From Planctomycetota bacterium (GTDB lineage Bacteria > Planctomycetota > PLA2): a stretch of 64,000 nucleotides of DNA. A model generated the notes under the pieces. It saw nothing but the letters and a program-made list of their open reading frames with translations, was not told where the DNA came from and ran no database searches. The number at the start of each line of letters is the position of its first letter. Within the stretch, counting starts at the first letter, position 1. This document shows, piece after piece, positions 2,581 through 32,264 of this stretch. Made by a program: the position numbers and the translations under genes. The stretch is taken from NCBI GenBank assembly GCA_021776735.1, contig JAJFFH010000028.1, positions 40,240 to 104,239 on the forward strand, given 5' to 3'.

Positions 2581-2634
2581 TTGTTCGACGCGTAGTCAAC
2601 CGCGCCCCCGGACGGGTGCCCATTCTGGTATAAG

Positions 2635-4242: not shown

Positions 4243-4250
4243 GAAGGACC

Positions 4251-16176: not shown

Positions 16177-19128
16177 ATGGGAACTTCTTCTTCTGAATCC
16201 GGGCGCGTGGACCCCTCTGCCCCCGCTGTCAGCATCGATGACTTGTTGGCCCACGCCGGGTGGGCACGCGCGTTGGCGACGCGTCTCGTGCGTGACCCCT
16301 CGGCGGCGGACGATCTCGTGCAGGACGCCTACGCCGTAGCGCTCGCGCGTCCCCCGCGCGGGGATCGGCCCGTGCGTCCGTGGTTGCGCGGGGTGCTGCA
16401 AAACTTGGCGCGGTTCGGGCGGCGCTCCGAGGCTCGGCGGGGGCGCCGTCAGGCGGAAGCGGTCCGGTTGGCGGCCGCGGGTTCTTCCGCTTCTACGGGT
16501 TCGTCAGAGTCGCCGGACGCGATCATTTCGCGCTTCGAGGCGCAGCGGGCATTGGCCCGGGCTGTGGCGGAACTTGCCGAGCCCTATCGTACGACCGTCT
16601 TGCTGCGGTTTCATGAGGATCTTGCGCCACGCGACATCGCGGTGCGGTTGGGGATTCCGGCCGGGACCGTACGTTGGAGGCTCAAGCATGCGCTCGACTT
16701 GCTCCGGGTGCGTCTCGACGACCGATTTGGGACGCGTCGGGCGTGGGCGCCCGCGTTCGTACCGCTACTTGCCACGGGAGGATCGTTGATGAGCAGCTTT
16801 TCGAAAGGGGTCGCCGGGGTCGCGGCGTTGGTTGCGCTGGCCGTGCTGGTTACATGGAACGCGCGCTCGTCGGATCGAACCCGGGCGACCGCAGGCTCCG
16901 AGCGCGCGGCAGGGACCCCGACGGGCCACACCGCAGCGGGGCGGAACACCGAGGCGGCGCCGGCTCGCGGCGCACCGGAAGACAGGCACGGAGAGACAAC
17001 CGGCGGCCCGACTACCCCGCCGCGCGCGACAGCTCGGTTGCTCGGCCGTGTGCTTGATGGGCAAGGCGCGCCAATCCCCTCCGCGACCGTGCGATTGCGG
17101 GGCATCGTAAGAGCGCGGCCCGCGACGACGGGTCCGGACGGTCGGTTCGTCGTCGATGTCGTGCCTCCCCCGGGCGGACGGTCTCAGACGACCGTGGTCG
17201 CGGTCGCGTCCGGCCACGCCGAGGCCCTGCGCAAGATCGAACTCAAGCCCGGGACGCGCGATGTCGGCGATCTGGTCTTGGGCTCGGGTGGCGTGGTGGC
17301 CGGAAAAGTGGTCGATTCACGCGGCCAGCCGATTCCCGGGGCAGTCGTCGGAGTGGCTCATGCCGAGGATCGATTCGGTGGCCTGGGGCCGATACCGATC
17401 GAGTTTCTGCTTGCCGGAGCACGCACCCGCAGCAACGCAGACGGCGCATTCGAGTTGCGCGGCGTCCCTGTGGGCACCTGCCGGATCGGAGCTGGACGAC
17501 AGGGCTATCGCGTGGCGGTGCGCAGCGGCGTCGCGGTCCGGCGGCATGAGCGGACCGTGAACGTGACGATCGAGCTTGTCGCATCCGCGAGCACCGACCG
17601 GTTCACGGGCGTGGTTGTCGATCCTCTCGGCGCCCCGGTCGGGGGAGCGGTGGTGCGGTACTCGTTTGAGTCGAACGGAACCTCCGGCTCGGGGTCGGCG
17701 CCTGCGAAGTCAGACGGGACGTTCTCATTCCCGGTCATGATTCCCGCGAGGTACCGGTTTGCGGCTACGGATCCGAGTGGGCGCTGGCGGGGATCGAAGC
17801 CGGTGCAGGCGAAGCCCGGGGACGAGGTTGTGCTTCGCCTGCAGGTGCCGCGCTGGTTGCCGATTGATGTACGTGACCGCGGCGGTCGCCCGATGCCGAA
17901 GGTCGTCTTGATGGTGCGCGACCCAGCAACCGGGATCGACACGCCCGCGGTGCGCGACCCCGCCGGACGCGTCGCAGTTCCCGGCGTGCCTTTTCGTCTC
18001 ATCGCGACGGCGGACGGGTACGCGAAGGCCGAATCCGAAGTCCTCGATCCGGGCGCACTTGCTCGGTCGCTGCGCCTGGTTCTGGCGAAGCTCGCGGGCA
18101 TACGCGGCGTCGTGCGCGTTGGCGGACGGCCGCTCGCGGGTGCGCGGGTCAGCTTGCACCGCGTGATCCCGCTTGACCGGCACTGCCGCCATGCCGGATT
18201 CTCATGCCGCTATCATCCGAAGCCGAAGGAGGTGGTGCGCACGCCTGCGGACGGGAGCTACCGGCTCACCGGCCGTGAGCGCGACCGATATGTGATCCGG
18301 ATCGAACACGGCGACTTCGCGCCGGTCGATGTCGGCCCTTTCAAGAACGATCCTGAAAGAGGCTCGTCCGGCCGCGACGCGGACCTCACGAGGGGCGGCG
18401 TGCTGGAGGGCCGTGTGATTACGAGCGCGGGCCGCAGCGCGGCTGGGATCCTCGTTGCCGTCTCGCGCGGTGACGGGCATCCACAAAAACAAGAAGTCGG
18501 CGCCGACGGCCACTTTCGGTTCGGGCGCCTCACGCCCGGTCCGTGGATCGTTCGTCGCGTGGATGGGCTGTCGCAACACACCGTGATCTTGGGGGGCAAG
18601 CCGCCGACGCCGCGCTGGAGTTGCCGGGTCCGCGACGGAGTCGTGACGCGCTTCGACCTCGACACGACACGTCCGTCGGGCCTTTCTGTGCGCGGCATGT
18701 TCGCCTTGGCCGGCGTCGATGTGCGCGGCGCGACCGTGCTGCTTCAGGCTGAGGGCCGAACGCTGCGTGACAAGGCCCCGCGTGGGACGCTGGATTCCGC
18801 CGGCCGTTTTCGGATCCGCGTCCCGCGGGTGGGCCGGTATTGGATTACCGTCATCGTCGGAGCGTTGCGCTACACCGAACGGATCGACCTAGAACGAGAG
18901 GGTGCGACTTGGGAGCGCTCGTTGAAGTCCGGCACCGTGGTGGTTCACGGCGTCAAAAACGATGATCGTTTGACATGGGAGGGCGGGGGCGCGAACGCCC
19001 GCGCGACGATCAGCCTCGTCCCGGATGCGGAGCGCATCGCACGCGTAGTGGTTCCCGTGGGAATCGCCCGCATCGGCGAACACAAAATCACGGTGCGTGC
19101 GGGCGCAACGGTGGAGATCCCGCGCTGA
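16177..19128 (+). CDS. ECF sigma factor fused to a TM helix and carboxypeptidase-regulatory-like repeats
   Basis: ADDLVQDAY..RPWLRGVLQN; LRFHEDL..DIAVRLGIPAGTVRWRL; repeated GRVLDGQGAPI / GKVVDSRGQPI / GVVVDPLGAPV. Confidence 0.88.
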   Translation: MGTSSSESGRVDPSAPAVSIDDLLAHAGWARALATRLVRDPSAADDLVQDAYAVALARPPRGDRPVRPWLRGVLQNLARFGRRSEARRGRRQAEAVRLAAAGSSASTGSSESPDAIISRFEAQRALARAVAELAEPYRTTVLLRFHEDLAPRDIAVRLGIPAGTVRWRLKHALDLLRVRLDDRFGTRRAWAPAFVPLLATGGSLMSSFSKGVAGVAALVALAVLVTWNARSSDRTRATAGSERAAGTPTGHTAAGRNTEAAPARGAPEDRHGETTGGPTTPPRATARLLGRVLDGQGAPIPSATVRLRGIVRARPATTGPDGRFVVDVVPPPGGRSQTTVVAVASGHAEALRKIELKPGTRDVGDLVLGSGGVVAGKVVDSRGQPIPGAVVGVAHAEDRFGGLGPIPIEFLLAGARTRSNADGAFELRGVPVGTCRIGAGRQGYRVAVRSGVAVRRHERTVNVTIELVASASTDRFTGVVVDPLGAPVGGAVVRYSFESNGTSGSGSAPAKSDGTFSFPVMIPARYRFAATDPSGRWRGSKPVQAKPGDEVVLRLQVPRWLPIDVRDRGGRPMPKVVLMVRDPATGIDTPAVRDPAGRVAVPGVPFRLIATADGYAKAESEVLDPGALARSLRLVLAKLAGIRGVVRVGGRPLAGARVSLHRVIPLDRHCRHAGFSCRYHPKPKEVVRTPADGSYRLTGRERDRYVIRIEHGDFAPVDVGPFKNDPERGSSGRDADLTRGGVLEGRVITSAGRSAAGILVAVSRGDGHPQKQEVGADGHFRFGRLTPGPWIVRRVDGLSQHTVILGGKPPTPRWSCRVRDGVVTRFDLDTTRPSGLSVRGMFALAGVDVRGATVLLQAEGRTLRDKAPRGTLDSAGRFRIRVPRVGRYWITVIVGALRYTERIDLEREGATWERSLKSGTVVVHGVKNDDRLTWEGGGANARATISLVPDAERIARVVVPVGIARIGEHKITVRAGATVEIPR

Positions 19129-19192: not shown

Positions 19193-19951
19193 CTACGAGA
19201 GATGCTTGCGCAAGACGGCTGCACCGAGGGCCAGCGCGCAAAGGACGAGCGTGCCGGGCTCGGGTACGGGACCAGGACCAGGACCAGGACCAGGACCAGG
19301 ACCAGGACCAGGACCAGGACCAGGACCAGGACCAGGACCAGGACCAGGACCAGGACCAGGACCAGGACCAGGACCAGTGAAGTTCCCGGAGGCAAATCCG
19401 CTGTCGGATTCGCCGGCCGCCGCGACCAGCGATTGGAGGTGGGCGCCCATTTGCGAGCCCGGGGCCGGAATACCGCCGCCCGTCGAAAGGCCGGCGCCGG
19501 TGAACATCGCTTCCGTCCAGAAGTTGCCGCCGGACAGCGTCAGGTCGAACGTGAGGTCCGTCGCGTTGTTGACCTGGTTCGGGTTGGGGCTGCCGCCGCC
19601 GGTCTGCGAGACCGCAAGGTCGAAGTCGGCGCTGCCCGAACCGGCGACGTTCGTGCCCGAGACCGGGGTCCACATCTTGCCCGCGTTATCCGGCAGGAAG
19701 TCCGAGAATGCCGCCGCAAAGGCTCCGATATCGAGATTGAAGGCGAAAATGTCGAGCTTGATACTCGGGTGCAAGGGCGAGTTGATGTCCACGACCCACG
19801 ACGCAACATCATCGACCACGTTGACGGTGACATCAACGATGAGGTTGTCCGGGTTGCCCGGGCGATCATCGCCGAGCAACTGGCCCGTAACAGAAAACGT
19901 ATCGGCGGCCACCAAGGCCGCGCATACCACTAGGCAAAAACCGATTCTCAT
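19193..19951 (-). CDS. PEP-CTERM surface protein with (Gly-Pro)18 linker
   Basis: Signal peptide; C-terminal VPEPG + hydrophobic helix + RKH. Confidence 0.9.
   Translation of the reverse strand: MRIGFCLVVCAALVAADTFSVTGQLLGDDRPGNPDNLIVDVTVNVVDDVASWVVDINSPLHPSIKLDIFAFNLDIGAFAAAFSDFLPDNAGKMWTPVSGTNVAGSGSADFDLAVSQTGGGSPNPNQVNNATDLTFDLTLSGGNFWTEAMFTGAGLSTGGGIPAPGSQMGAHLQSLVAAAGESDSGFASGNFTGPGPGPGPGPGPGPGPGPGPGPGPGPGPGPGPGPGPVPEPGTLVLCALALGAAVLRKHLS
19269..19376. repeat. Perfect hexanucleotide tandem repeat (GGACCA)18
   Basis: 108 nt of uninterrupted repeat read directly. Confidence 0.97.
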
Positions 19952-20948: not shown

Positions 20949-21035
20949 GACGTGTTGGTTATCGGAAGACTGAAGCTCGAATTGACCGCCCGGCGTCTCA
21001 CGATGAAACCCGCTATGATGGGGGCGGAGGAAACC

Positions 21036-21851
21036 ATGCGAACGGCAGGACTTGTTTTGGCACTTATGGGCGCTGTTTGGGCCGAGGAGCCCCCCGGGAA
21101 GAATCGCGGAGCGGAATTCGAGGCGAAGCTCGAACGACTGCAGGACGAGGCAGCAAAGCTTGAGGCCGCGGGCAAACACGACCACGCGCGTGCCCTGCGC
21201 CAGAAGACTCAAAAGCTGGCGGCGAGATTCAGGGCGATGCGGGAGCGGCGTGACGATGACCGGCATGCGGGACCGGACAAGGAGCAGCGCGCCCTGCGTG
21301 CGTTGGGCCAGGCGATCGAGTCGTTGCAGGCCGCCGGGCGTCGCGAGGCGGCCGAGCAGGTGGCCAAGTTGGCGCGCGATCTCAAGAAAGACATGGCGAA
21401 GTCGCGCGAGCGGCGGATGGCCGAGCACCACGTCGAGATCATGCGCCTCGCGTTTCACGCGTTTCGCGAGGCGAAGAAGGGCGACTGGGCGGAGCTCATG
21501 GAGCATGCGATCCATGTGCGTGAACTCCAGCTCGCCGGGCGGCGCGACGAAGAGGCCCGCGAGATCATGCGCAAGGGTCCGAACCTGGGCGCGCAGGCCG
21601 AGTTGCTGCATGCGGCGGCGGCCCTTTGGAAGAAGTGGGGCCATAAGAAACGTGCTGCGATGTGTCTTGAGCTTGGCAAGCACTTCGGGCAACGCTGGCA
21701 CAAGAAGCGCGGCCCCAAGAACGCGAAGGGCAAGAAAAAGCACGGCGCGGCGCGTGGCGAGATGCTGCAGCTCCTCGAGCGCACGCTGCACCGTGTCGAA
21801 AAGCTGGAGCGTCGGATCGCCGAGCTGGAAGAGCGCCTGCGCCAAAAGTAG
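21036..21851 (+). CDS. Secreted alpha-helical/coiled-coil hypothetical protein
   Basis: GGAGG RBS before ATG 21036; signal peptide ending AVWA; charged helical composition. Confidence 0.75.
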   Translation: MRTAGLVLALMGAVWAEEPPGKNRGAEFEAKLERLQDEAAKLEAAGKHDHARALRQKTQKLAARFRAMRERRDDDRHAGPDKEQRALRALGQAIESLQAAGRREAAEQVAKLARDLKKDMAKSRERRMAEHHVEIMRLAFHAFREAKKGDWAELMEHAIHVRELQLAGRRDEEAREIMRKGPNLGAQAELLHAAAALWKKWGHKKRAAMCLELGKHFGQRWHKKRGPKNAKGKKKHGAARGEMLQLLERTLHRVEKLERRIAELEERLRQK

Positions 21852-21886
21852 CTGCCTGCCTGAATAGCCACCGTCAATAACAAGCC

Positions 21887-21913
21887 CCGGGGTGGGGAAT
21901 CTCCCCGCCCCGG
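21887..21913. terminator. GC-rich 12-bp hairpin, putative terminator
   Basis: CCGGGGTGGGGA-ATC-TCCCCGCCCCGG; no clear U-tract on the + strand. Confidence 0.45.
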
Positions 21914-21958: not shown

Positions 21959-23125
21959 GTGTTGAGTCGGACCGCATGGGACCAACGGTTCCGGGAACGA
22001 ATGATGCGGTCGGACATGTCAGCGGAGCTGTTTTTTCCCATCGGCAACTCCGATTGGAAGGACGGCCGCTGGATCGTCCGGCGCGGCGAACGAGGCGAGA
22101 CCCGCACGGACATCACCGGTGTCCGGCTGCGTCCCGCCGATCCGCGGGGCGAGGATCTCGTCCCCGAGGGACAGGTCCGCACCGACCTCGTGAATCTGGT
22201 TGCGACCCTGCGCAAGGCGCGCGGGATCGAGGGCGGAAGCGGCCTTGTCTTGTCGTCGCGCATGCTCAGGCGTAGGCAAACGGACGGCGATACTCTTCAC
22301 CGCATCCGGTTCGGGCTGCAAGACACGGGATCCACCGGGGAGGACTCGGCCGTTGCCGCGCGGGCGTGCCATCGCCGCATTCGCCGCGCCGTCAGCAGGT
22401 CGGGGCTGGTCGTGGAGCACCCGCGGCGCTTTGATTCCGAGACGGGCCTTGCCGGACTCGAGACGTGGGCGGGGCAGGTGAGGTTGCGCCGCCGTCGCCG
22501 CTGGTGGCTCTGGCTCTTGCCGCTGCTGCTCCTGCTGATTCCGCTCTGGAAGCCGGATCTGGTCCGACCGGAGCGCTTTTTTGGCGTTGCGATCGAGACC
22601 AGGAGCCTTGTCATCCTGCTCGACAAGTCGTCGAGCATGGGCACGCATTTTGGCGCCGTGCAGGGCGAGGCGCGCCGCGTTCTGACGAGCATGGCCGGGG
22701 CGGATGCCGCACATTTTTGCAACGTGATCGCGTACGACCAACACGCGCATCCCGCCCTGCCCGGGTTGCGTGCGGTCGATGCGGACTGCGAGAAGCAGTT
22801 GGCCCAGTTCCTGTCCCGGCTTCGAGCTGGCGGCGGCACAAACCTGCGCGCCGGACTCGAGGAGGCCGCGCGCCAGGTCGCCCAGCACGGCCGGCCGACA
22901 ACGCTCCTGATCCTGACCGATGCGCAGGACTCGTCGATCCAGCAGATGCTGGCGGACAAGGACAGCCTGCTCGCGCGTTTTGCGGGCGTGGGCATCGTCG
23001 GCAACGCGCTGACGCCGCGCCTGTTCGGGAAGGACGGCGAGGCGCGCCCGGTCGATGGACACGAAAAAAACCTGGCGGCGCTCGCCGAGGCGCTCCACGG
23101 AAGGTTCGGACCCAATGATTCCTAG
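21959..23125 (+). CDS. Membrane-anchored von Willebrand A (vWA) domain protein
   Basis: GAGGAG RBS + GTG; RRRRR-WWLWLL TM segment; MIDAS DKSSS, GGGTN, ILTD. Confidence 0.85.
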   Translation: MLSRTAWDQRFRERMMRSDMSAELFFPIGNSDWKDGRWIVRRGERGETRTDITGVRLRPADPRGEDLVPEGQVRTDLVNLVATLRKARGIEGGSGLVLSSRMLRRRQTDGDTLHRIRFGLQDTGSTGEDSAVAARACHRRIRRAVSRSGLVVEHPRRFDSETGLAGLETWAGQVRLRRRRRWWLWLLPLLLLLIPLWKPDLVRPERFFGVAIETRSLVILLDKSSSMGTHFGAVQGEARRVLTSMAGADAAHFCNVIAYDQHAHPALPGLRAVDADCEKQLAQFLSRLRAGGGTNLRAGLEEAARQVAQHGRPTTLLILTDAQDSSIQQMLADKDSLLARFAGVGIVGNALTPRLFGKDGEARPVDGHEKNLAALAEALHGRFGPNDS

Positions 23126-25175
23126 CGATCTCGTCAACACACTCAACGACATTCGCGCCGCCTACATGGAGGCGACCGGGAAACTGCCGGAGATCGCCAG
23201 CTTCCGGTCGCTGATGGGCACGTCGTCCACGCTGCCCGCCGCCGTGCGTGAAATCCTCGCCGTCATGGAGCACCGTCATCTGAAGCGGCCCTGCGACGGG
23301 CGCGTCACGGTTGCCGTGATCGGCTCGAGCGGCCACGGCAAGACGACGATTCTCGACGAGATGTTTCCGGGGCTCTCCGAACGCGGTTGGCTCGTGACGG
23401 ACGTGACGGACACGACCTCGCAGTCGCTGCGTATCGAGTACGCACCGGACGGATCGCCCGCGCTCGAGGAGGTCGAGGTGCGTTCGTGGGATGTCGAGCA
23501 GATCAAGGAACTGCTGCATCTTCCCGCGGTGGAAGAGCAAAACCGAAACGACAACATTCGCGTCAGCTACCTGGAAGACGCGGTCATCGTCGATGGAACC
23601 GAGGCGCGCTTTTCCGATGCCGACCTGGGTCAGTTCCGGTTTCCGCGCCGTCTGCGTCTGCAGCCGTTTTCCGAGCCGTTTTCCGTGCCCGCCGAGCGCT
23701 CTTCGGAGCGCGCGTTCATTCGCGCGCTCACTGTCAAGGAGCAGTCTTCCGCCCTGTCGGCGGGGCCCGTGCTCAAGCAGGGCGGAGAGACCTACGATGC
23801 GCTGCAGTTGCGCGCGGTCGTCAAGGATGTGCGGTTGCGCGATCGGTTCGAGAACATTCGCCGCTGGAGCGGCCGGCCCGACGAGGAGGTCGCGCGGCTG
23901 ACGTTCGTCGATACGCCCGGGCTGGCCGTGCAGGGCAGCGCGAAGGACGAGGTGCTGCGCCACTGCCTTGAAAAAAAGAGCAGTCAGATCGCGCTGCAAC
24001 TCTGGAAAGACGACGAACTCGACTTCATCGTGCATCTCGTCTTGTGCGGCCGCCAGTCCGACTTCGCCGAGCTCTGGAAAGCAATCGAGTGCGAGTGCGG
24101 GCCGGCGGAACTCGCCGACCTGCAAGACCGCATGATCGTCGCGGTCAACGGGATGAACATCTACTTCACCAACCGCGACCTCAAGAAGAAATACGAGGAT
24201 CCGGAGACCGCGCGCCGCGAGGGCGACCATTTCGCGACGACGCTCCTCGACAACGTCCTGCAGAAAATGAGCCCGCGGGGTCGCGTGCGGCCCGCGCGCG
24301 TCTGTTTTCTCGATTCGGCGTCGATCGTCGAGACCCTGACGACCGGCCAGTACGCCGACGCGTACCAAAAGTACCGTCCGATCATGGAGCGCTGGCTGGA
24401 GCCCGGCGGCGTCGGCCATACGACACTCAAGGAGCTCGACCTTCTCGAGTCGTTCCGTGACAACGTCGATCCGCTCTGCGACCCCGAGGACCGCGGGCAA
24501 GGCCATCTTGTCCGACAGCTTCAGCAGGTCGTCGAGGAGCAGGGGCCGGCGCTGCTGCTCAAGAAACACCTTTGCAAGACCGGACTTTTGCGGGGCCTCG
24601 AGGGACTTCAGGAAATCCTCTCCTCGTACTACGACGACGAGGGCCGCATGACGCGGGAGGCCACGCAGCAGGCACTTGGGGCTTGTCTCGCCTTTTTGGA
24701 CCGCAACGATCTCGATGGCGTCGAGCGCTTCGCGCGCGACCATCTCGACTCTCGGATCGAGGAGATCGTGCCGCGGCGCGACCCGCCCGATGGCTGGGTC
24801 CAGGAGAGTTTCTTTGCTCTATGCGACCTCATCAAGGAGAACGTTCTGTTCCACGGCGAGGCCGCGCCCGACGTCCAGGGCTCGTTTGCCCGCTACTTCG
24901 ACGGCCAGGCCCGGACGTGGGCCCAGGACTGGGGTTACGCCGACGCGCAGTTGGCGCCGCCCGACAAGGGATTCGCGAACTCGGCGGATCTCGTCACGCA
25001 CTGCCTCCGGCTCCACGCCCGCGATGTCTTGTATCTGCTCCTGGTCGAGGAGCGCGTGGCCGGAGTGGAGCAGGGCGACGACGATCGCGAACAGGTCGAT
25101 GAGGTCTTGAGAATCCTGGAGCATGCGAGGCGCCGCGCCGCCGCCGCGTGCGCCGAATACGGAGTGGGGGTCTGA
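23115..25175 (+). CDS. Dynamin-like (SrfC-like) P-loop GTPase
   Basis: G1 VAVIGSSGHGKTT, G2 candidate DTTS, G3 FVDTPG, atypical G4 AVNGMN; helical C-terminus. Confidence 0.75.
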   Translation: MIPSDLVNTLNDIRAAYMEATGKLPEIASFRSLMGTSSTLPAAVREILAVMEHRHLKRPCDGRVTVAVIGSSGHGKTTILDEMFPGLSERGWLVTDVTDTTSQSLRIEYAPDGSPALEEVEVRSWDVEQIKELLHLPAVEEQNRNDNIRVSYLEDAVIVDGTEARFSDADLGQFRFPRRLRLQPFSEPFSVPAERSSERAFIRALTVKEQSSALSAGPVLKQGGETYDALQLRAVVKDVRLRDRFENIRRWSGRPDEEVARLTFVDTPGLAVQGSAKDEVLRHCLEKKSSQIALQLWKDDELDFIVHLVLCGRQSDFAELWKAIECECGPAELADLQDRMIVAVNGMNIYFTNRDLKKKYEDPETARREGDHFATTLLDNVLQKMSPRGRVRPARVCFLDSASIVETLTTGQYADAYQKYRPIMERWLEPGGVGHTTLKELDLLESFRDNVDPLCDPEDRGQGHLVRQLQQVVEEQGPALLLKKHLCKTGLLRGLEGLQEILSSYYDDEGRMTREATQQALGACLAFLDRNDLDGVERFARDHLDSRIEEIVPRRDPPDGWVQESFFALCDLIKENVLFHGEAAPDVQGSFARYFDGQARTWAQDWGYADAQLAPPDKGFANSADLVTHCLRLHARDVLYLLLVEERVAGVEQGDDDREQVDEVLRILEHARRRAAAACAEYGVGV

Positions 25176-25179
25176 TCCG

Positions 25180-27591
25180 ATGCGTGCCACCAAGCAGCCC
25201 GCGAAAGCCGGCGTTTACCAGTTCATCGTGCTGCCGAACACCGGCATCCAGATTTGCCGCGGGTTTCCCGTCACGCCGGACGCCCAGCGCTCGATCGACG
25301 AGCTCTTCAAGGCCGCGAATCGGGCGGCGCAGGAATTCGAGAGCCACGAAGTCGTGCGGCTCGTCCGCGAGCACGTCGCCTGCAACCGGGAGCTCGAGGC
25401 AAGCGGGTGGGTCGCGTGCGACACGAACGAGTTCGTATTCTGGCGCATGACCCGCGCGGGTGCCGAGGTCCATCTCGATCTTGTCGTGGACACACGCAAC
25501 GGAGCCGGCGCGCAACTCGGCAACAAGATCCCGGTGCAGGTCGGCAACGGCCTGTTCCGCCGCCGCACGCGCCTCGCCGACATCTTTGTCGAACGCCACG
25601 AGAGCGCGCGCAACGAGATCGGCACGCTGATCATGGACTTCGGCAACAGCGGCAGCTCGTTTGTGTTTTCGCGCAACGGCGCCGGACCGCTGCAGGCGCA
25701 TGTCGTGCAGCCCACCAACCCGTTCGATCCGCGCTACAACGAACGGTCGGAGACCGAGCGCAACATCCTCAAGTCCAACATGATCGTCCTGCGCGTCGGA
25801 CCACGCACGGAAGAGGCGCCGTGGATCGTTCTCGGCAAGCGTTCGGAAGAGCTGATCCGCGACCATCCGCTATCGACCTACCTGTACGCGCCCAAAAAAT
25901 ACGTACGCCACTGGCCGGACCACCTCCGTGCACCCGAACCGACGATGAAGTTCCGGGGCATCCTCGGGCAGCGCGACGGATTGCACCCGATGCTTCATTT
26001 CGTGCGGCACACGCTCGACGAGATGATGCAGCACGTGCTGGCGTCGCTCGCCAACCCGCACGGCACGTCGGACGAACCGGAGTTCTATCCGCAGGTGGCG
26101 CGCTTGATGTGCACCTATCCGCTGACGTGGCGTGAGTCGGACCGCCGGCTCTTTCAGGAGATGATGGAGGACGTGGCGAGCCGGCTGCTCGTTCACGAAG
26201 ACCACGTGCGCGAGCAGTTCAAGGTCGAACTGATCTGTTCCGAGCCGGTCGCCGTCGCCGCGTTCGTCCTGTGGGAGACGTTTTTCCACTTCGGCACCAA
26301 GAACCTCGCCTTGGCGGCGAGCACCCTCGGCAACACGAAGGGCACGAATGAACTGCGCATGCTGGTCGTTGATATCGGCGGCGGATCCACCGACATTGCC
26401 TGTGTGGACATCGGCTGGAACGTGCAGCAGTTCGACGACTCGGTCGACGTGACCTTCAAGCTGCTCGAGTCCATGCGGTTCAACCGGGCGGGTGACCGGC
26501 TCTCGCATCTTCTCGCCGCCGCGCTCCGCGAACATCTCGCGCTCAAGTACGGCCTTACCGAGTCGCTCGACTTCCGGATCGAGTCCCGCAACCCGGCGTT
26601 CACGCGCGGGTACAAGCGGCTCGCCGTGAGCCGGATCGCGGAGCTGGCAGAGCACGCGAAGGCGGCGCTTTCCAGCAGCGACGGGACCTGGACGCTCGAG
26701 CCTGCGGACGAATTGGACCTGCTCCACTGCTTCGAGCCCCTGCTCGACGACACCGGGAACGCCGGGACTCCCGGCAACCTGGAGGATCGCGTCCGACGCG
26801 GGCCGCGTTTCTCGCTGGACCGTGCGACGTTCCAGGAGTGGGTCGAACATGACCGCCAGTCGCTCGAGACCAACGGCGAACCGGGCTTCATGGACATCTT
26901 CTTCTATCTTGAAGAGCTGCGCCAAAGCCTGCGCGAGAAAAACCGCGACCCGCACCTTGTCGTCTTGTCCGGTCGCTCGACACGACTGCCGTTTATCCGC
27001 ACCATGGCCGCGCGCCGGCTGGGGCTGCCGCCGCATCGCGTTCGCACGCTCGCCGACATCCTGCCCGACTCGCTGAAACTCCAGGGCCACGAGAACATGG
27101 ACAAGCTCGCCGTGGTCTGCGGGGCGCAACGGTTCCGCTTCGGCGATCACATCCGGTTTTCCGCGCTCGCGGACGCGCCGATTTTCAATCGCTACATCGG
27201 CACCGTGCGCGAGACGCCGACCGGTCTCAAGCTCAACCGCGTGCTGATCCGTCCTGGCGACTCGTGCCCGCGCACGATCGACGTCGAGGTGCCGCCCGCG
27301 CGCGACATCCGCATCGGCCACGCGTTCCGCGAGGACGGGACCGCGCAGGTCGTGGCGAACCTGTCGAACCATTCGCACACGAAGGCGCACAAGGTGTCGC
27401 TTGATGTCCTGGACGACTACTCGATCCAGATGCCGTCCCACGAAGACGTCGTGTGTTCGGAGTGGGTGCCGGGCGGCAACGACATCGTGGTCGATAACTT
27501 CCACGACACCGGCCGGATCGACGGCGAGCCCGATGGCTTCCTGCGCCGGATCGTCCTGAAGAACCGTGAGGCCTGGCATCGCGATGCGTAG
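25180..27591 (+). CDS. Hsp70/actin-fold ATPase (SrfB-like)
   Basis: Phosphate-1 IMDFGNSGS, connect SEPVAVA, phosphate-2 VVDIGGGSTDI, adenosine VLSGRSTRLPFI. Confidence 0.8.
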   Translation: MRATKQPAKAGVYQFIVLPNTGIQICRGFPVTPDAQRSIDELFKAANRAAQEFESHEVVRLVREHVACNRELEASGWVACDTNEFVFWRMTRAGAEVHLDLVVDTRNGAGAQLGNKIPVQVGNGLFRRRTRLADIFVERHESARNEIGTLIMDFGNSGSSFVFSRNGAGPLQAHVVQPTNPFDPRYNERSETERNILKSNMIVLRVGPRTEEAPWIVLGKRSEELIRDHPLSTYLYAPKKYVRHWPDHLRAPEPTMKFRGILGQRDGLHPMLHFVRHTLDEMMQHVLASLANPHGTSDEPEFYPQVARLMCTYPLTWRESDRRLFQEMMEDVASRLLVHEDHVREQFKVELICSEPVAVAAFVLWETFFHFGTKNLALAASTLGNTKGTNELRMLVVDIGGGSTDIACVDIGWNVQQFDDSVDVTFKLLESMRFNRAGDRLSHLLAAALREHLALKYGLTESLDFRIESRNPAFTRGYKRLAVSRIAELAEHAKAALSSSDGTWTLEPADELDLLHCFEPLLDDTGNAGTPGNLEDRVRRGPRFSLDRATFQEWVEHDRQSLETNGEPGFMDIFFYLEELRQSLREKNRDPHLVVLSGRSTRLPFIRTMAARRLGLPPHRVRTLADILPDSLKLQGHENMDKLAVVCGAQRFRFGDHIRFSALADAPIFNRYIGTVRETPTGLKLNRVLIRPGDSCPRTIDVEVPPARDIRIGHAFREDGTAQVVANLSNHSHTKAHKVSLDVLDDYSIQMPSHEDVVCSEWVPGGNDIVVDNFHDTGRIDGEPDGFLRRIVLKNREAWHRDA

Positions 27592-27814
27592 CCTGACCAA
27601 CCGCCAACTCCTGCTGGGGGTCGTCGTGCTCGCGGGGGCGGCGACCCTGTTCGGGCTTGTCGATGTGGTCCAGGGCGCGACGGCGCGCGGTCGCGAGGCA
27701 AAGCTGCGCGTGCGCGTGCAGGAACTCGAGCGCGATCTCGGCACGCTGCGGGCACGCATCGATGCTCGGGAAGCGGAGCCGGGCCTGCTGGACCGGGTCC
27801 TGGGCCGGCCGTGA
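27584..27814 (+). CDS. Small TM + coiled-coil protein (76 aa)
   Basis: Overlaps both neighbours; N-terminal hydrophobic helix, then heptad pattern LRVRVQELERDLGTLRARI. Confidence 0.7.
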   Translation: MRSLTNRQLLLGVVVLAGAATLFGLVDVVQGATARGREAKLRVRVQELERDLGTLRARIDAREAEPGLLDRVLGRP

Positions 27815-28326
27815 GCTCGCTGGCACTGCTCTTCGCCGCGGGCCTGTTCGCCGGCGCGCTCCTGCTCTGGGATCGGTGGCGCGCCGAAGACATCGCCGTC
27901 CCGACGCTGCCTCAAGAGGCCCGCGACGCGGACCGCGTCTGGGCCGCCGACGCCCAAGGTGTCCGCGCGCTGCCGGTCCCGCACCGCGAAGTCCACGACC
28001 CGTACCGCACGATCGGCGAACTTCTCGCTGCGCTCGAAGGCCAACAGCTCGCAGAACCCGAGCGGCGCCTCAAGGCGCTCTACCAACTCGAGGGCGCGCT
28101 CGGTGTGGCTCCCACGGAACTCCACGCGGCGCAGGACGCCCTCGTCGGCCGCCGCGTGATGGACCAGACCATCGCCCGCATCGGCGTCATCGAGCCCGGC
28201 GCGCTCGTCGATCGCCGCACGATGCGTCCGCTCGGCCCCGGCAGCCGCGTGCGGCAACCCCTCGGCGCCATCGGCTACTCCGAGGACGGAAGGGTACTTC
28301 TGAAGGCGAAGGTCGTCACCGGTTGA
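27811..28326 (+). CDS. Membrane-anchored protein with GrpE-like C-terminal beta domain
   Basis: GTGA overlap; N-terminal TM; PGALVDRRTM...VRQPLGAIGYSEDGRVLLKAKVV resembles the GrpE G..FDP...GY...RVLRPA.V pattern. Confidence 0.6.
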   Translation: MSSLALLFAAGLFAGALLLWDRWRAEDIAVPTLPQEARDADRVWAADAQGVRALPVPHREVHDPYRTIGELLAALEGQQLAEPERRLKALYQLEGALGVAPTELHAAQDALVGRRVMDQTIARIGVIEPGALVDRRTMRPLGPGSRVRQPLGAIGYSEDGRVLLKAKVVTG

Positions 28327-29965
28327 CCGCGACCGGAACGATGACGTACCCGATCGCATCGAGGCGCGCGCGTTGGGCGTCGGTTAGCGCCAGTCCCGCG
28401 GTGAGAGCAGCGCTCAGGGAAAGCTGACGGACGGCGAGATCCTTGAGGTGTTTCGTCGGCATGAGTCGCACGCCGTGTTTTGGGTCGGGGCCCGGCCGGG
28501 GCAACGCCGCGGCCCACGCGGCAACGAGAGGCCGGGCGCGCGCGGTCTGATCCGTATCGAGTTCGAGAACTCCGACAAGGTGCGCGAGGACCGCGCGGGC
28601 CGGTCCGGTTGCCGCGTCGTACGGGAGGGCGCGTGCGCGCGCACCCCACACCAGGCCCGGCCCGAACAGGTCTGTAATGCCCTGGCCGCGATACGTCTGC
28701 GGCCTCAGGATGTTGCGCTGCTTCGCCGTGAGATGTCGCTCGAGCCGCGCCAGGAAACGGGTGCGGTTTTGGAGCGAGGCGTGCACGCGAGCCAGGATCG
28801 GTCCGTCCGCGGCGAGTGGTTGTGGGTTCCAGTCGCGCAAGAGCGTACGGACGGCGATGCCTTGCGCCGGCGAGAGTGGGGCGCCCGCGCGCCGTAGCAC
28901 CGCGCCGGCGAGGTTGGCGACGACGAGCGGATGCAGCAGCACCTCGTTCGGTGTCTCGCCCGGAATGCCTCGATGAGAAAGCGTAAGGGCCGCCTTGACC
29001 AACTCGCCGTTCCAGCGCTGGGCGAGCCCGGCTGTTTCGGGCACCGGGAACGTGCCATCCCCGGCACCGACGAGATCGGCGAGGAGCGGCCGCAGGATCA
29101 GGATTGCACGAGCGGCGAGATCCCAGTCGATGGCGCGCAACGCATCCTCGTGCGGCGCGAACAGAAACGTCGGACGGCGCGGATCTTGTTGCGCAATTCT
29201 GGAACCCTCCTCCCTGGTGCGCGGTACGAGGGCGGCGAGCCTTCGGGCGATTTCCCTGCTGCGGGCGCGCGCGTCTTCGAGTTCACCCGTCACGCCTGCA
29301 TGCGGTGCGGTCGCGAGTTCGGTGCTTGCCGGTGCATCGGGCGCGGTCGCGAGCGAATAGCCGGCGCCAAACGCGGTCAGCGCGATGGCGAGCGTGGCCG
29401 CCACGGGCAGAGCCGAACCGGTCGTGGAGCCTGCAAGTGCGAGCAGGCCGAAGCGCCACGTACGGGGATCTTCGCGATAGGCATCGTCAAGCGCGAGCCG
29501 GAGTTTTTGCAGGGCGCGGCGGAGCCGCGTGTCGACGGTCTTGACCGGCACGTCCATGACGCGCGCGATCTCGCGCGGCGGCCGATCGTCGAAGAATCGA
29601 TGGACGATCGTCGTCCGATAGGGCTCGGGGAGCTGATCGACCGCGTTCACCACGCGCCGTTGCACCTCGATGCGTTCCGCGACGGATGCGGTCGAGGCGA
29701 GAGACTCGGGGAGGGCGGCGGCGCGCTCCCGTTGCCGCCGCCGACTCTCGCTACGCCGCGTCTTGTAGGCGAGGTTGCGGGTCACCCCGGCCAGGAACGC
29801 GCGCAGGCGCGAGGGGTGGCGGGGCGGTTGGACCAGCGCGACCGCGAGGGTGTCTTGCACCACGTCGTCGGCCTCGGCATCGTCGAATAGAAGGCTGCGG
29901 GCCAATCCGCGCAAGAACCCGACGTGTTCAAAGAGCGCTTCGGGATTGATTCGCGGCGGCAGCAT
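28316..29965 (-). CDS. ECF sigma factor fused to a TM helix, coiled coil and an unknown helical domain
   Basis: ADDVVQDT..LRAFLAGVTRN; HRFFDD..EIARVMDVPVKTVDTRL; C-domain paralogous to 30317..31492. Confidence 0.88.
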   Translation of the reverse strand: MLPPRINPEALFEHVGFLRGLARSLLFDDAEADDVVQDTLAVALVQPPRHPSRLRAFLAGVTRNLAYKTRRSESRRRQRERAAALPESLASTASVAERIEVQRRVVNAVDQLPEPYRTTIVHRFFDDRPPREIARVMDVPVKTVDTRLRRALQKLRLALDDAYREDPRTWRFGLLALAGSTTGSALPVAATLAIALTAFGAGYSLATAPDAPASTELATAPHAGVTGELEDARARSREIARRLAALVPRTREEGSRIAQQDPRRPTFLFAPHEDALRAIDWDLAARAILILRPLLADLVGAGDGTFPVPETAGLAQRWNGELVKAALTLSHRGIPGETPNEVLLHPLVVANLAGAVLRRAGAPLSPAQGIAVRTLLRDWNPQPLAADGPILARVHASLQNRTRFLARLERHLTAKQRNILRPQTYRGQGITDLFGPGLVWGARARALPYDAATGPARAVLAHLVGVLELDTDQTARARPLVAAWAAALPRPGPDPKHGVRLMPTKHLKDLAVRQLSLSAALTAGLALTDAQRARLDAIGYVIVPVAVNR

Positions 29966-29971
29966 GTCTTG

Positions 29972-30000
29972 TCGTACCCGCGGGCGTGCGATTCCCTTCA
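29972..30000 (-). promoter_or_regulatory. Putative autoregulatory ECF promoter
   Basis: TGAAGGGAA-N12-GGGTACGA-N6-ATG, repeated exactly at 31499..31527. Confidence 0.7.
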
Positions 30001-30316
30001 GCGCGACTCCGATATCGCGGCGGGGGAACCCTTCGCTGCACGCGGGTTTCGGAAAGCAATGTAGAGTTTTTGCGACATGACATCGGAATTCCGTCTCACG
30101 GTCCGAAAACAAGGGTACCCGTCGGGCGTTGTTCCCGCCTAGCATGAACGCCAGGAGTCGGGTCCATGGTCAAACTAGTCGCACTATCGCTGGCGGTTCT
30201 CTTTGTCGTCGCCATCCTGGCGCTGTTCATCGTCCTGCCGATTCGGCAGGGCATAGTGGAACGTCGTCATACGGGCGGGCGATACGGACCACCGCGCCGC
30301 TGACGTCGAGCAACGC

Positions 30317-31492
30317 TCACCGCCGGTACGGCACCAGAATGCCGGAGCTCGCGCGCAACGTCTTTTTCTGCGCGTCCGTGAGCGGCACCGTCGCCAGGAT
30401 CGCGCGCTGGAGTTCGATCTGGTTCGCGCCGGCCTGTCGGATGCGGTCGGTGCGGTGAAACGCCTTTTGCTTGACGGCGAGGAACTCGTCGTCGAAACGC
30501 TGGGCCCAAACGCGCACCGCGTTCTCGAGTGCCGGTCGGGCGTCGTCGCCGAGGCCCAGCGCCTTAGCGAATCGGGCGGTCGTGTTTTTTTGTAGATCGG
30601 CGCGGGTCTTGAACGGGACCGGGCGCGCGAGCGGACCGAGCATGACGCCGTCGGAGACGATGTCGATCATCGCGTAGCCGCGGAGCTCCTTCGGCCGCAG
30701 CTTGTTCACCTGACCCGTGCCTAGAACCTTTTCCAGATCATCGACAAGCCGCGCCTTGAGCGCCGCTTCCTCCATCACGCGTTCGAGTGCCGGGACGTCG
30801 TCCGCGTATCCCTCCTGGCGCGCCTTTTCCTCGACCGTGAAACGCCGGCCCAACTCCTCCAGGGCCGCGTCTTGGTTCTCGCTCAACGGCACGTCGGACT
30901 GGCGCAGCGCGGACGCGACGAGGTTGACTGTCATGGCTGGATGGCTGAACGAACCGTTGACGCCCGTGCCCTTGACGCCGGCCTGCATCGCCGTGAGCGC
31001 CTGCGTCACGAGCGGGCCGTTCCAGCGCTGGATCTCGCCGGCCTCCGGCGGGTACGGCTTGCCCGCCAAGAGCGCCTCGGCCAGTTTCACGAGGAGCGGC
31101 GGCAGGTGGTCCACGGACTGGCCGACGCTGTTCCAGTCGATCGCGGCCAGAGCCTCCTCCATGCCTTCATAGACAAACGTCGGCTTCCTGGGATCGACCG
31201 CCGGCGCCTCGGGGACATCGCCGTCCGTCGGCTTTTCTTGCGGGGGCTCTTCGTTGTGCTTTTCGATCGCCGCCAATGCCGCGTCCAGTTTCGTCTGGAG
31301 CTTGCCGAGTTTTTCCTTCTCCCGCCCGAGTTCCTTGCGCAATTGTTCGACGTGCGCGCGCGGAACCGTGTCATTCCGGGACGCCGCGGCGCGCGCCGGT
31401 TCGGCTCTCGCCGACCGGCCCACTCCCCAGCCGAGAAAAAAGCCGGCGATGCCGACGAGGAGTGCCAGGGCGAGGGAAAGAGGGGAGCGCAT
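30317..31492 (-). CDS. Membrane-anchored/secreted protein; free paralog of the ECF C-terminal domain
   Basis: N-terminal TM and coiled coil; shares AIDW, QRWNG.LV, HP...NL, LRP...RG, LTDAQ with the neighbouring sigma fusion. Confidence 0.82.
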   Translation of the reverse strand: MRSPLSLALALLVGIAGFFLGWGVGRSARAEPARAAASRNDTVPRAHVEQLRKELGREKEKLGKLQTKLDAALAAIEKHNEEPPQEKPTDGDVPEAPAVDPRKPTFVYEGMEEALAAIDWNSVGQSVDHLPPLLVKLAEALLAGKPYPPEAGEIQRWNGPLVTQALTAMQAGVKGTGVNGSFSHPAMTVNLVASALRQSDVPLSENQDAALEELGRRFTVEEKARQEGYADDVPALERVMEEAALKARLVDDLEKVLGTGQVNKLRPKELRGYAMIDIVSDGVMLGPLARPVPFKTRADLQKNTTARFAKALGLGDDARPALENAVRVWAQRFDDEFLAVKQKAFHRTDRIRQAGANQIELQRAILATVPLTDAQKKTLRASSGILVPYRR

Positions 31493-31498
31493 GATGTT

Positions 31499-31527
31499 TC
31501 GTACCCGGTGAATCGGGTTTCCCTTCA
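31499..31527 (-). promoter_or_regulatory. Putative ECF promoter, second copy
   Basis: TGAAGGGAA-N12-GGGTACGA-N6-ATG. Confidence 0.7.
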
Positions 31528-31769
31528 AGCAATCTCCGTGGTTTCCGATAAACCCTGCATGCCGCAAACGGAGGGTACCAAGACCGAGGCTCCGCCCGCG
31601 CGCCGGGAGATCGATCTCGTGCGCTTTGACGCCGAGCAGCTCGATTCCGGGCTGTACCGGCACCGCCAGACGAAGTTCGTCTTCGAGCTTTCGCGTCCCC
31701 CGTCGGGTTAGGGGATCAGGGCGGAGGCAGCGTACGGACGGCGATGTCCGTGCGGCCCGCATGCCGTGG

Positions 31770-32264
31770 CTACTGCGGCGGCCTGAGCTTTTGGGGTGGC
31801 TCGGGTAGATCCGGCGCGTCGGGGGACGCGATGCGGCCCTCTTCCTTGGCCTTTTCGAACCGGTAGTGCTCGTGGCGTTCCAGGTCGAAGGCAGGCAGTC
31901 GACCGATGTTGTCGAACCCGCGGTGGTGCGCCTTGCAGCGGTGGCAGATGCCGACGTCGGGCAGGGTGACGTAAAGCACAAGGTCGATGAGGGCGGCGAC
32001 GCCGAGGGGCCAGTAGGGCCACACGAAACACAGACCGGCGCCGACGGCGATCAGGAGCAGGCCCATCTTCTGGTTGAAGTCCCGATGGCGGTAGATGTGT
32101 TCGCAGCCGCAGGCGAGGCATTTTTCGAGGTCGTTGCCCGCCTCGGGTACCGGAGTCTCGGCATCGCAGTGACGGCACGTGAGCGTTTCGCCCGGTGCGC
32201 CCTCGATGGCGCGGCCGCACTTCGAGCAGCCGAACTCCACGGAAGTCTTGATGGATTCACTCAT
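31770..32264 (-). CDS. Zinc-ribbon membrane protein
   Basis: Four CxxC pairs (CSKC, CRHC, CLAC, CHRC) flanking a TM hairpin; ATGA overlap with the upstream gene. Confidence 0.75.
   Translation of the reverse strand: MSESIKTSVEFGCSKCGRAIEGAPGETLTCRHCDAETPVPEAGNDLEKCLACGCEHIYRHRDFNQKMGLLLIAVGAGLCFVWPYWPLGVAALIDLVLYVTLPDVGICHRCKAHHRGFDNIGRLPAFDLERHEHYRFEKAKEEGRIASPDAPDLPEPPQKLRPPQ

Follow-up and report, generated by a model that had tools for sequence, protein, structure and literature searches.

We examined a five-gene operon (g1 to g5, positions 21959..28326) in a 64,000-nucleotide stretch of contig JAJFFH010000028.1 from a Planctomycetota bacterium (GCA_021776735.1), the whole of which is called the window here. 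We found that the operon encodes a membrane-associated cassette consisting of a membrane anchor with a von Willebrand factor A-type (vWA) domain, a dynamin-like nucleoside triphosphatase (NTPase), an ATPase that is a distant homologue of SrfB, and two small membrane proteins, the second of which resembles GrpE in its C-terminal part. We are confident of the identity of the module and of the predicted folds. That the cassette is a SrfABC-type module, in which the vWA anchor, the dynamin-like NTPase and the SrfB-like ATPase are joined by a membrane-tethered GrpE-like exchange factor, is an explanation whose chances we consider evenly balanced, and a role in envelope sensing coupled to membrane remodelling is proposed only tentatively. 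To our knowledge, SrfABC-type operons are widespread and tied to virulence regulons and insect toxicity, and the role of the large SrfB and SrfC proteins is not known.

Organization of the operon

The ORF (open reading frame) list of the window places five ORFs on the + strand of this region. The first, g1 (21959..23125, +), encodes a single-pass membrane protein of 388 aa with a vWA domain, and AGGAG lies 4 nt 5' of its GTG start. It is followed by g2 (23115..25175, +), which encodes a soluble dynamin-superfamily NTPase of 686 aa, and by g3 (25180..27591, +), which encodes a soluble ATPase of 803 aa with the predicted Hsp70/actin fold (acetate and sugar kinases/Hsc70/actin, ASKHA). The ORFs of g2 and g3 are listed from 23055 and 25123, respectively; homologues support the ATG at 23115 as the start of g2, and the ATG at 25180 is the likely, likewise homologue-supported start of g3. 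The small single-pass membrane protein g4 (27584..27814, +) has 76 aa counted from its ATG, and an alternative GTG start at 27566 would give 82 aa. The last gene, g5 (27811..28326, +), encodes a single-pass membrane protein of 171 aa with the GrpE-resembling C-terminal part.

At the level of single bases, the overlap of g1 with g2 is 11 nt long, a gap of 4 nt separates g2 from g3, g3 and g4 have 8 nt in common counted from the g4 ATG, and the overlap of g4 and g5 is GTGA. These readings agree with the initial annotation, which had described five co-oriented and tightly packed genes. A hydrophobic segment, defined as a Kyte-Doolittle mean over 19 residues of at least 1.7, was found only in g1, g4 and g5 among the five proteins.

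The SrfB-like ATPase g3

The g3 protein carries a phosphate-1 motif (DFGNS, aa 153-157), an EP-containing connect motif (CSEPVAVA, aa 353-360), a phosphate-2 motif (DIGGGSTD, aa 398-405) and an adenosine motif (LSGRSTRLP, aa 596-604). Residues D153, G155, N156, D398, G400-402, D405, G598, R599, R602 and L603 are invariant in all 23 sequences of the family. When the family profile was compared with the PDB, DnaK nucleotide-binding domains were matched at the three motifs (E 0.0035). The motifs, which stand in order and align with the DnaK segments, identify g3 as a member of the Hsp70/actin-fold ATPases with intact nucleotide-binding motifs, as had been claimed.

SrfB (PF07520) was the top Pfam family for 23 of 23 g3 members, with a best E of 5e-10, and HSP70 was matched in only one of the 23. 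A profile comparison of the g3 family with three canonical SrfB proteins by hhalign gave a probability of 96.8% (E 2.6e-10) over 302 columns. The crossed controls gave probabilities of 0.06% (g2 against SrfB) and 0.19% (g3 against SrfC). We conclude that g3 is a real but distant homologue of SrfB. The PADLOC family PDC-M61B was considered as a candidate for g3 and rejected, with E 8.9e-5 and a match confined to aa 394-470, a short phosphate-2 stretch.

The dynamin-like NTPase g2

The canonical GTPase motifs are G1 (GxxxxGKS/T), G3 (DxxG) and G4 (N/TKxD). In g2 we identified G1 as GSSGHGKTT (aa 69-77) and G3 as DTPG (aa 266-269). Both are conserved, so that all motifs quoted for g2 and g3 in the initial annotation are present and conserved in their families. 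An insert of about 190 aa separates G1 from G3, and a helical stalk occupies approximately aa 400-686. The maximum hydrophobicity of g2 is 1.19, below the threshold for a transmembrane (TM) segment.

The AlphaFold2 model of g2 was built from 53 sequences and reached a predicted local distance difference test (pLDDT) score of 90.5 and a predicted template modelling (pTM) score of 0.80. A Foldseek search of the PDB with this model returned only dynamin-superfamily chains as top matches, with a probability of 1.00. The best was a chain of the Campylobacter dynamin pair (5owv_A, E 2.8e-8), and the other top matches included IniA, Drp1, dynamin 1, SynDLP, MxB and BDLP; 107 PDB chains were matched at E <= 0.001. 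In the Pfam scan, a weak Dynamin_N match was found in 8 of 8 homologues (best E 9.3e-5) beside generic P-loop families. The modelled structure shows the fold of the dynamin superfamily, with a predicted GTPase domain and helical stalk, which bears out the earlier proposal of a dynamin-like protein.

One feature of g2 speaks against its reading as a GTPase. The G4 position is non-canonical and reads A-V-N-G-x-N (aa 343-348; NGxN at aa 345-348), with N345 and G346 present in at least 90% of the 53 sequences. Because NGxN stands in place of N/TKxD, the nucleotide may not be GTP. The PADLOC family mad3 was rejected as a candidate for g2, since the match was at the P-loop level only (E 0.033).

The vWA anchor g1

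The vWA domain of g1 covers aa 217-346, and three Pfam families exceeded their cut-offs there with E values of 9e-9 to 3e-6, namely VWA_3 (36 bits, cut-off 27), VWA_2 (36 bits, cut-off 27) and VWA (28.2 bits, cut-off 23.8). The residues of the metal ion-dependent adhesion site (MIDAS), D222-x-S224-x-S226, T294 and D321, are the same in all six homologues aligned. The protein was thus correctly described as a TM-vWA protein with an intact MIDAS.

We found that g1 is built from a conserved N-terminal domain (approximately aa 1-175), an arginine-rich juxtamembrane stretch, a TM segment rich in leucine and tryptophan (approximately aa 177-200) and the vWA domain. There is one hydrophobic segment, with its maximum at aa 184 and five arginines before it. 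Lysine and arginine residues average 5.75 per 15 residues before the segment and 2.25 after it, and the excess on the N-terminal side was seen in 4 of 4 homologues, these being the four of the six aligned that exceed the hydrophobicity threshold. Since the basic residues lie N-terminal of the TM segment, the conserved head of about 175 aa would be cytoplasmic and the vWA domain would be periplasmic.

The membrane proteins g4 and g5 and the relationship to GrpE

The g4 protein has a short basic N-terminus, a TM segment at approximately aa 11-29 counted from the ATG (maximum 2.27) and a heptad-like helical tail. In 17 of 18 further loci inspected, g3 and g5 flank an ORF of this type, with a TM segment followed by a heptad-like helix; it varies in length from 91 to 226 aa and shows little sequence conservation. 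Only the degraded Thiomargarita locus described below departs from this pattern. The length and the TM segment of the 76-aa TM coiled coil reported by the initial annotation were confirmed, and the coiled coil is a visual reading of the sequences, by which we take the tail to be a probable coiled coil.

The g5 protein ends in ...GYSEDGRVLLKAKVVTG. Searching 1.84 billion representatives with a profile, we recovered 114 relatives at E <= 0.001, and almost all of them have 150-210 aa. The AlphaFold2 model of g5 (83 sequences; pLDDT 91.6, pTM 0.81) consists of a TM helix (aa 2-27), a loosely packed stretch, three helices and a small beta-domain. In this model, aa 81-171 (window positions 28051-28323) appear to resemble the helix pair and beta-domain of GrpE. 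Lysine and arginine are more frequent after the TM helix in 73 of 74 homologues (3.4 vs 0.07), and this basic flank suggests that the globular domain is cytoplasmic, on the same side of the membrane as g3.

Two structural aligners placed GrpE first. In the Foldseek search, GrpE chains took ranks 1-9 of 350,542 PDB chains (E 0.052-1.3), including Thermus 3a6m, Geobacillus 4ani, E. coli 1dkg, human GrpEL1 9bls/9blt and the integrative GrpE-DnaK model 9a81, and Mycobacterium tuberculosis GrpE (8gb3_E) ranked 12. VIA-align placed 1dkg_B first of 48,161 representatives, with residues 81-171 of the model on GrpE 93-193 (Z 4.2, root-mean-square deviation (rmsd) 3.7 A, 81 residues), and three further GrpE entries were among the top eight. 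In a second comparison with 480 chains, GrpE took ranks 1-7, led by 8gb3_E (Z 4.8, rmsd 3.5 A, 82 residues), 1dkg_A (Z 4.7) and a third chain (Z 3.9), and the best unrelated chain had Z 3.2; all of these Z scores lie below 5, within the range of common arrangements.

Sequence profiles pointed to the same region. We aligned the g5 family by hhalign with 26 GrpE sequences from relatives of the window's genome, and g5 aa 82-170 were collinear with the same part of GrpE (E 0.021, score 19.7, probability 2.2%). Shuffled by column, 1 of 150 GrpE alignments attained that score, and shuffled by block, 3 of 150 did (empirical p ~0.01-0.02). Among the protein language-model neighbours of g5, the GrpE cluster was the sole named family, at rank 7 with a score of 0.86. 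These four pointers are weak and partly interdependent.

Several results weigh against a GrpE relationship. The best Foldseek match is weak (E 0.052, probability 0.66, template modelling score 0.25), the hhalign probability is as low as given above, and in VIA-align, chance arrangements typically give Z 7-8 to models that have no clear match. No match to g5 was found in Pfam (E <= 0.1), NCBIfam or PADLOC, and PDB profile searches with 11 or 83 sequences contained no GrpE at E <= 10, the best matches being spectrin and designed helical proteins (E 0.05-4). Among the eight Pfam-scanned relatives (the longest, weakest and best of the 114), none was recognised as GrpE. The model also lacks the long N-terminal dimerising helix of GrpE and has the TM helix (aa 2-27) and then short helices.

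These points would be explained if g5 were not an exchange factor, its likeness to GrpE being a chance similarity of a common helix-plus-beta-sheet arrangement, and if g4 and g5 were membrane adaptors or assembly factors for g1, g2 and g3, such as a periplasm-spanning or oligomerising scaffold. All GrpE similarity scores do fall in a grey zone with no signal at the level of hidden Markov models (HMMs), the dimerisation helix is missing, and on at least three occasions g4 and g5 were lost from cassettes whose core stayed intact. However, GrpE was the top match of both structural aligners over 350,542 and 48,161 chains, the profile alignment independently picked the same region in the same order, and g5 lies two genes after an Hsp70-fold ATPase, with its domain predicted on the same side of the membrane. 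We regard the adaptor explanation as possible, with chances somewhat short of even. A genuine GrpE-type fold is the probable one for the modelled domain, and whether g5 would serve g3 as a GrpE-like exchange factor we judge to be evenly poised. The initial annotation had called the last ORF GrpE-like; the top structural ranks and the collinear profile alignment give weak support to this claim, and the Z scores of at most 4.8, the Foldseek E of 0.05 and the lack of a Pfam or PDB HMM match count against it.

The window's genome carries two ordinary GrpE genes elsewhere (C3:182871-183275 and C48:206821-207246), one strong (132 bits) and one divergent (51 bits), both apart from g5.

Conservation and distribution of the cassette

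We scored 34 related loci, 8 from species genomes and 26 from metagenomes, with HMMs of four families. In loci with enough room, g2 lies directly upstream of g3 in 25 of 26, g1 is present in 20 of 21 and g5 in 21 of 28. The recurrence of this gene set in 34 related loci puts the arrangement far beyond chance, and the survey confirms the expected synteny of the cassette across several phyla. We found that g4 and g5 travel together.

The g1 gene is upstream of g2 except in L064 (284-6742) and L065 (2296-11749), which form one clade and have the permuted order NTPase-ATPase-g4-g5-anchor; upstream in L065, a fragment of g1 with the head alone is retained, and a g2 fragment lies inverted in L064. 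The exception for g2 is L070 (1-2838), the only locus with upstream room that has neither g2 nor g1, where the contig ends inside g3. The Candidatus Thiomargarita nelsonii contig L009 (75-2835) contains short fragments of g1, g2 and g3 within 2 kb and then a g5 homologue, so that its cassette looks degraded, and a 648-aa g2 homologue under the same species name is present in the protein collection (P0274).

The g4/g5 pair is absent in 7 of 28 loci (L008, L052-L055, L060 and L063), with no substitute ORF. This makes the pair dispensable, which counts against the explanation with an exchange factor. On the g3 tree these loci form three well-supported clades, which requires at least three changes, and g5-bearing loci lie on both sides of the midpoint. 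Because the loci without the pair are scattered over three clades, g4 and g5 look ancestral and repeatedly lost. In one of them, the Parabeggiatoa-like L053, about 1.6 kb is inserted between g2 and g3 (5407-7001), and tandem repeats that translate to a repeated peptide lie 3' of g3.

By source name, the carriers include Planctomycetota (Pirellulaceae, Gemmataceae and the cultured Rubripirellula obstinata), Omnitrophota, Verrucomicrobia, Desulfobacterales (Desulfonema limicola) and large sulfur bacteria (Parabeggiatoa, Thiomargarita). The source names of the cassette proteins are all "hypothetical protein". The cassette was found in none of 40 relatives of the window's genome and in 4 of 401 sampled genomes of the phylum, the window's own included, which belong to four different families. 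The g3 tree mixes G+C contents of 30-69%, and the genes flanking the cassette in the window have no counterpart in the eight loci from species genomes. None of the 17 pattern matches in viral contigs encodes a relative. The stretch was found in three DNA runs of one biofilm-metagenome study, one of which may be its source, and in one further run with a small share; no RNA run is listed. We read the cassette as a self-contained, horizontally spread membrane module.

This distribution would also fit an NTP-dependent conflict (anti-phage or anti-invader) system, in which the two NTPases together with the vWA protein would make up a core for sensing and for setting a threshold, and the output would be membrane damage or abortive infection. 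The cassette is sparse and patchy, with the window's genome the only carrier among 41 relatives, it occurs in unrelated phyla with unconserved flanks, and its carriers include filamentous and giant bacteria (Thiomargarita, Parabeggiatoa, Desulfonema limicola). The GTPase-centred systems described by Kaur et al. 2020 (PMC7159879, in the part available) include Hsp70, GrpE and a membrane-bound vWA protein, and the weak PADLOC match of g3 adds to the likeness. On the other hand, apart from noise at the P-loop, PADLOC matched nothing in four of the five proteins at E <= 0.1. The loci repeat one set of five (or three) genes with no exchange of enzymatic modules, and by inspection of the related loci we found neither a sixth conserved gene nor a variable effector beside the cassette. 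The window neighbours are not defence genes, no relative was found in viral contigs, and the GAP1 partner that defines DO-GTPase systems was not recognised by inspection, no search with a GAP1 model having been made. We consider a conflict system unlikely.

Relationship to SrfABC

Canonical srfABC loci were taken from gammaproteobacterial genomes, in which SrfC was found in 7 of the 251 sampled, and the identities of the proteins were confirmed. Besides the SrfB homology of g3, the nearest language-model clusters of g2 are SrfC (17 of 30 matches, score 0.96), and a permissive hhalign comparison recovered the same motif order in g2 and SrfC: a P-loop, a very long insert and hhhhDxPG. A distant relationship between the two is possible. 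The g1 protein and SrfA have in common a membrane segment of the type RRRWW-x-WLLLPLLLL, a likeness that may be compositional. A vWA protein is encoded two genes after srfC in 2 of 2 canonical loci with enough flank, and vWA genes flanking srfABC are also mentioned in the available part of a 2026 preprint (10.64898/2026.09.18.752743). In that part, SrfA is described as a kinase-like cytoplasmic head, a TM helix and a lipocalin-like periplasmic domain, and an AlphaFold3 model presents SrfA as a platform for SrfB and then SrfC (10.64898/2026.09.18.752743).

Other results argue against a place of the cassette within srfABC proper. The g3 protein of the window scored 21.9 bits against PF07520, below the cut-off of 27.1, and the match spans aa 570-624 only. 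SrfC (PF10139) had no match in the window's genome at E <= 10 and none in eight scanned g2 homologues, and 0 of 120 homologues carry it. The hhalign comparison of g2 with six SrfC proteins (E 0.0046, probability 7.6%) covered only 64 columns around the P-loop. NCBIfam SrfA (NF040486) did not match g1 at E <= 0.1, and the hhalign comparison of g1 with two SrfA proteins (probability 83%) was confined to 45 columns of the juxtamembrane and TM region. The divergent srf-like system proposed by the initial annotation therefore stands as far as g3 is concerned, with PF07520 on top in 23 of 23 members and the 96.8% hhalign probability, and is not supported at the sequence level as a member of srfABC proper, given the sub-threshold g3 match, g2 without PF10139, g1 without SrfA similarity beyond the membrane segment, and a different gene order.

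The gene after srfC (349-363 aa), which encodes an N-domain, a Pro/Glu-rich linker, a TM segment and a helical C-domain, was considered as a counterpart of g5 or GrpE and rejected (hhalign E 0.67 and 0.095). Two gammaproteobacterial genomes encode a long SrfC-family protein of 1116-1132 aa (L048:4130-7528 and L050:217-3567), with no SrfB gene beside it in the 12-14 kb fetched. In the main texts of the literature we found no description of this gene combination, nor of SrfB or SrfC with vWA, dynamin or Hsp70 as in this cassette. PADLOC likewise assigned the cassette to no characterised system, so it keeps its standing as distinct from already characterised systems.

A vesicle- or contact-delivered toxin complex like the Xenorhabdus stockiae SrfABC toxin, with the dynamin-like protein driving vesicle release, is very improbable: g3 is homologous to SrfB, and the available parts of the sources report Xenorhabdus SrfABC as cytotoxic and insecticidal (PMC6950479; 10.64898/2026.09.18.752743) and propose its vesicle-mediated export (10.64898/2026.09.18.752743), but the named carriers live freely in water or sediment (Planctomycetota, Omnitrophota, sulfur bacteria) and are not associates of animals or insects, no toxin-like domain was detected in the five proteins by Pfam, PADLOC and NCBIfam scans, g1 has a vWA domain where SrfA has a lipocalin-like one, and the SrfABC toxin reading is itself mechanistically unexplained.

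Proposed mechanism

The SrfABC-type module with a GrpE-like exchange factor could work as follows. The periplasmic vWA domain of g1 would bind a metal-dependent ligand outside the cytoplasmic membrane, and its cytoplasmic head would serve as a docking platform for the soluble g3 and the dynamin-like g2, paralleling the model of SrfA with SrfB and SrfC. The g3 protein would run an Hsp70-type ATP/ADP cycle. Held at the membrane by its own helix, g5 would probably pair with g4, whose coiled coil would replace the long dimerising helix missing from g5. Acting as a nucleotide-exchange factor of the GrpE type, g5 would speed ADP release from g3, at the membrane only, and the output would be nucleotide-driven membrane reshaping or tethering by g2. 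The folds, the motifs and the linkage of the genes are results of the analysis, and the topology, all contacts, the exchange activity and the output are what we infer. None of the five proteins has a J domain by Pfam at E <= 0.1, as the initial annotation had noted for the operon, and the missing J-domain partner counts against this scheme.

More speculatively, SrfB-type ATPases may be Hsp70-like machines in general for which ADP release is rate-limiting. The g5 head and the g4 stalk would then form a split membrane GrpE, and the five proteins a transmembrane transducer leading from ligand capture by the periplasmic vWA domain and its MIDAS, through a locally accelerated Hsp70-type cycle, to dynamin-driven membrane remodelling. 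We hold this idea to be doubtful but worth stating. If the GrpE-like partner is real, the SrfB-like ATPase would cycle like Hsp70 and not polymerise like actin. Bacteria would then have in this cassette their first exchange factor dedicated to an Hsp70 relative other than DnaK, and the unexplained SrfABC systems would gain a mechanistic handle. The dynamin fold of g2 points to membrane work, and the fusion of a vWA/MIDAS ectodomain to the anchor suggests an extracellular ligand. One carrier, Rubripirellula obstinata, has been cultured, so that these predictions are open to bench testing.

Flanking sequences and neighbouring genes

A G+C-rich inverted repeat (21886..21913, +; CCCCGGGGTGGGGA...TCCCCGCCCCGG, read directly) separates g1 from the gene upstream of it (20952-21851). 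The repeat may serve that gene as a terminator, in which case g1 would be the first gene of the operon. A simple terminator scan missed the repeat because it has no T tract. No promoter-like site was found in a consensus scan around the operon, and terminator-like sites were not enriched (7 vs 4.9 +/- 2.3 in shuffles). Downstream, a convergent gene for an extracytoplasmic function (ECF) sigma factor (28316-30145, -) terminates within the last codons of g5.

The window neighbours comprise genes for multihaem cytochromes, a Ser/Thr kinase, ECF sigma/anti-sigma fusions, polymerase X, ribonucleotide reductase, IF-2 and NusA, and none of them gives a defence-island context. ECF sigma genes with long C-terminal extensions cluster at 13485-16028 (-), 16177-19128 (+), 28316-30145 (-) and 30317-31981 (-), and two members carry CarboxypepD_reg repeats. 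The ORF at 30317-31981 (-) has no sigma domain; unaligned and by eye, it is like the C-terminal part of its neighbour. The gene at 19193-19951 (-) encodes a long (Gly-Pro)n run and then a PEP-x-hydrophobic-basic tail resembling a PEP-CTERM sorting signal, and its repeat creates long spurious ORFs on the opposite strand. Large multihaem cytochrome genes with Cytochrome_C7 and MtrC/MtrF-like domains are located at 703-8072, beside a putative outer-membrane porin-like gene, and this region includes a 1277-aa protein with LVIVD repeats.

Comparison with known systems

DO-GTPase/GAP1 systems, as set out in the available part of PMC7159879, contain canonical Hsp70 and GrpE, FNIII/DnaJ proteins and variable effectors, and occur mainly in actinobacteria and firmicutes. 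Like those of the GAP1-N2 type, the cassette combines a TRAFAC-type GTPase, an Hsp70-family protein, a GrpE-type factor and a membrane-bound vWA protein, and both are patchy in distribution and include multicellular or filamentous bacteria. In contrast, the GTPase of the cassette is dynamin-like and its ATPase SrfB-like, Pfam detected no J domain, and inspection revealed no GAP1 or variable effector. Since their defining partners (GAP1 and McrB/McrC, respectively) are not present, the DO-GTPase/GAP1 systems and CoCoNuT with its Hsp70-like CnuD were set aside, both being compared by their published descriptions.

With bacterial dynamin-like proteins (Campylobacter DLP1/2 5owv, mycobacterial IniA 6j73, Nostoc BDLP 2j69 and SynDLP 7zw6), g2 shares the GTPase domain and helical stalk (Foldseek E 1e-8 to 1e-6) as well as the G1 and G3 motifs. 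It differs from them in having no TM or paddle segment of its own, in the insert of about 190 aa inside the GTPase domain, in NGxN at G4 instead of N/TKxD, and in a partner gene for an Hsp70-fold ATPase instead of a second dynamin.

Compared with GrpE (PF01025; 1dkg, 8gb3, 3a6m, 4ani and 9bls), the C-terminal 90 residues of the g5 model superpose on the helix pair and beta-domain and align collinearly, and g5 is likewise encoded near an Hsp70-fold ATPase. However, g5 has no PF01025 match and carries a TM helix where GrpE has the long dimerising helix, and its predicted partner is the SrfB-like ATPase, whereas that of GrpE is DnaK.

The closest comparison is with SrfABC, known as SsrB-regulated factors in Salmonella and as the SrfABC toxin in Xenorhabdus (PF07520 SrfB, PF10139 SrfC and NF040486 SrfA). 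The canonical loci have the order A-B-C, whereas the order here and in the related loci is anchor-NTPase-ATPase. The g3 protein has about 200 aa fewer than SrfB and scores under the PF07520 cut-off, g2 lacks a PF10139 match and has a clear dynamin fold, and the g1 head has no detectable similarity to SrfA, whose outer domain is lipocalin-like and not vWA. The g4/g5 pair has no counterpart 3' of srfC in three canonical loci inspected. Nevertheless, both systems have a single-pass anchor with a TM segment rich in arginine, tryptophan and leucine and a layout of head, TM segment and outer domain, both have a large soluble Hsp70-fold ATPase, with g3 homologous to SrfB, and in both a long insert separates the P-loop of a large soluble NTPase from its DxxG motif. 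A vWA domain is associated with both, fused to the anchor here and encoded by a separate gene in the canonical loci. Taken together, we read the cassette as a distant variant of the SrfABC kind, which fails strict SrfABC membership and shares its logic.

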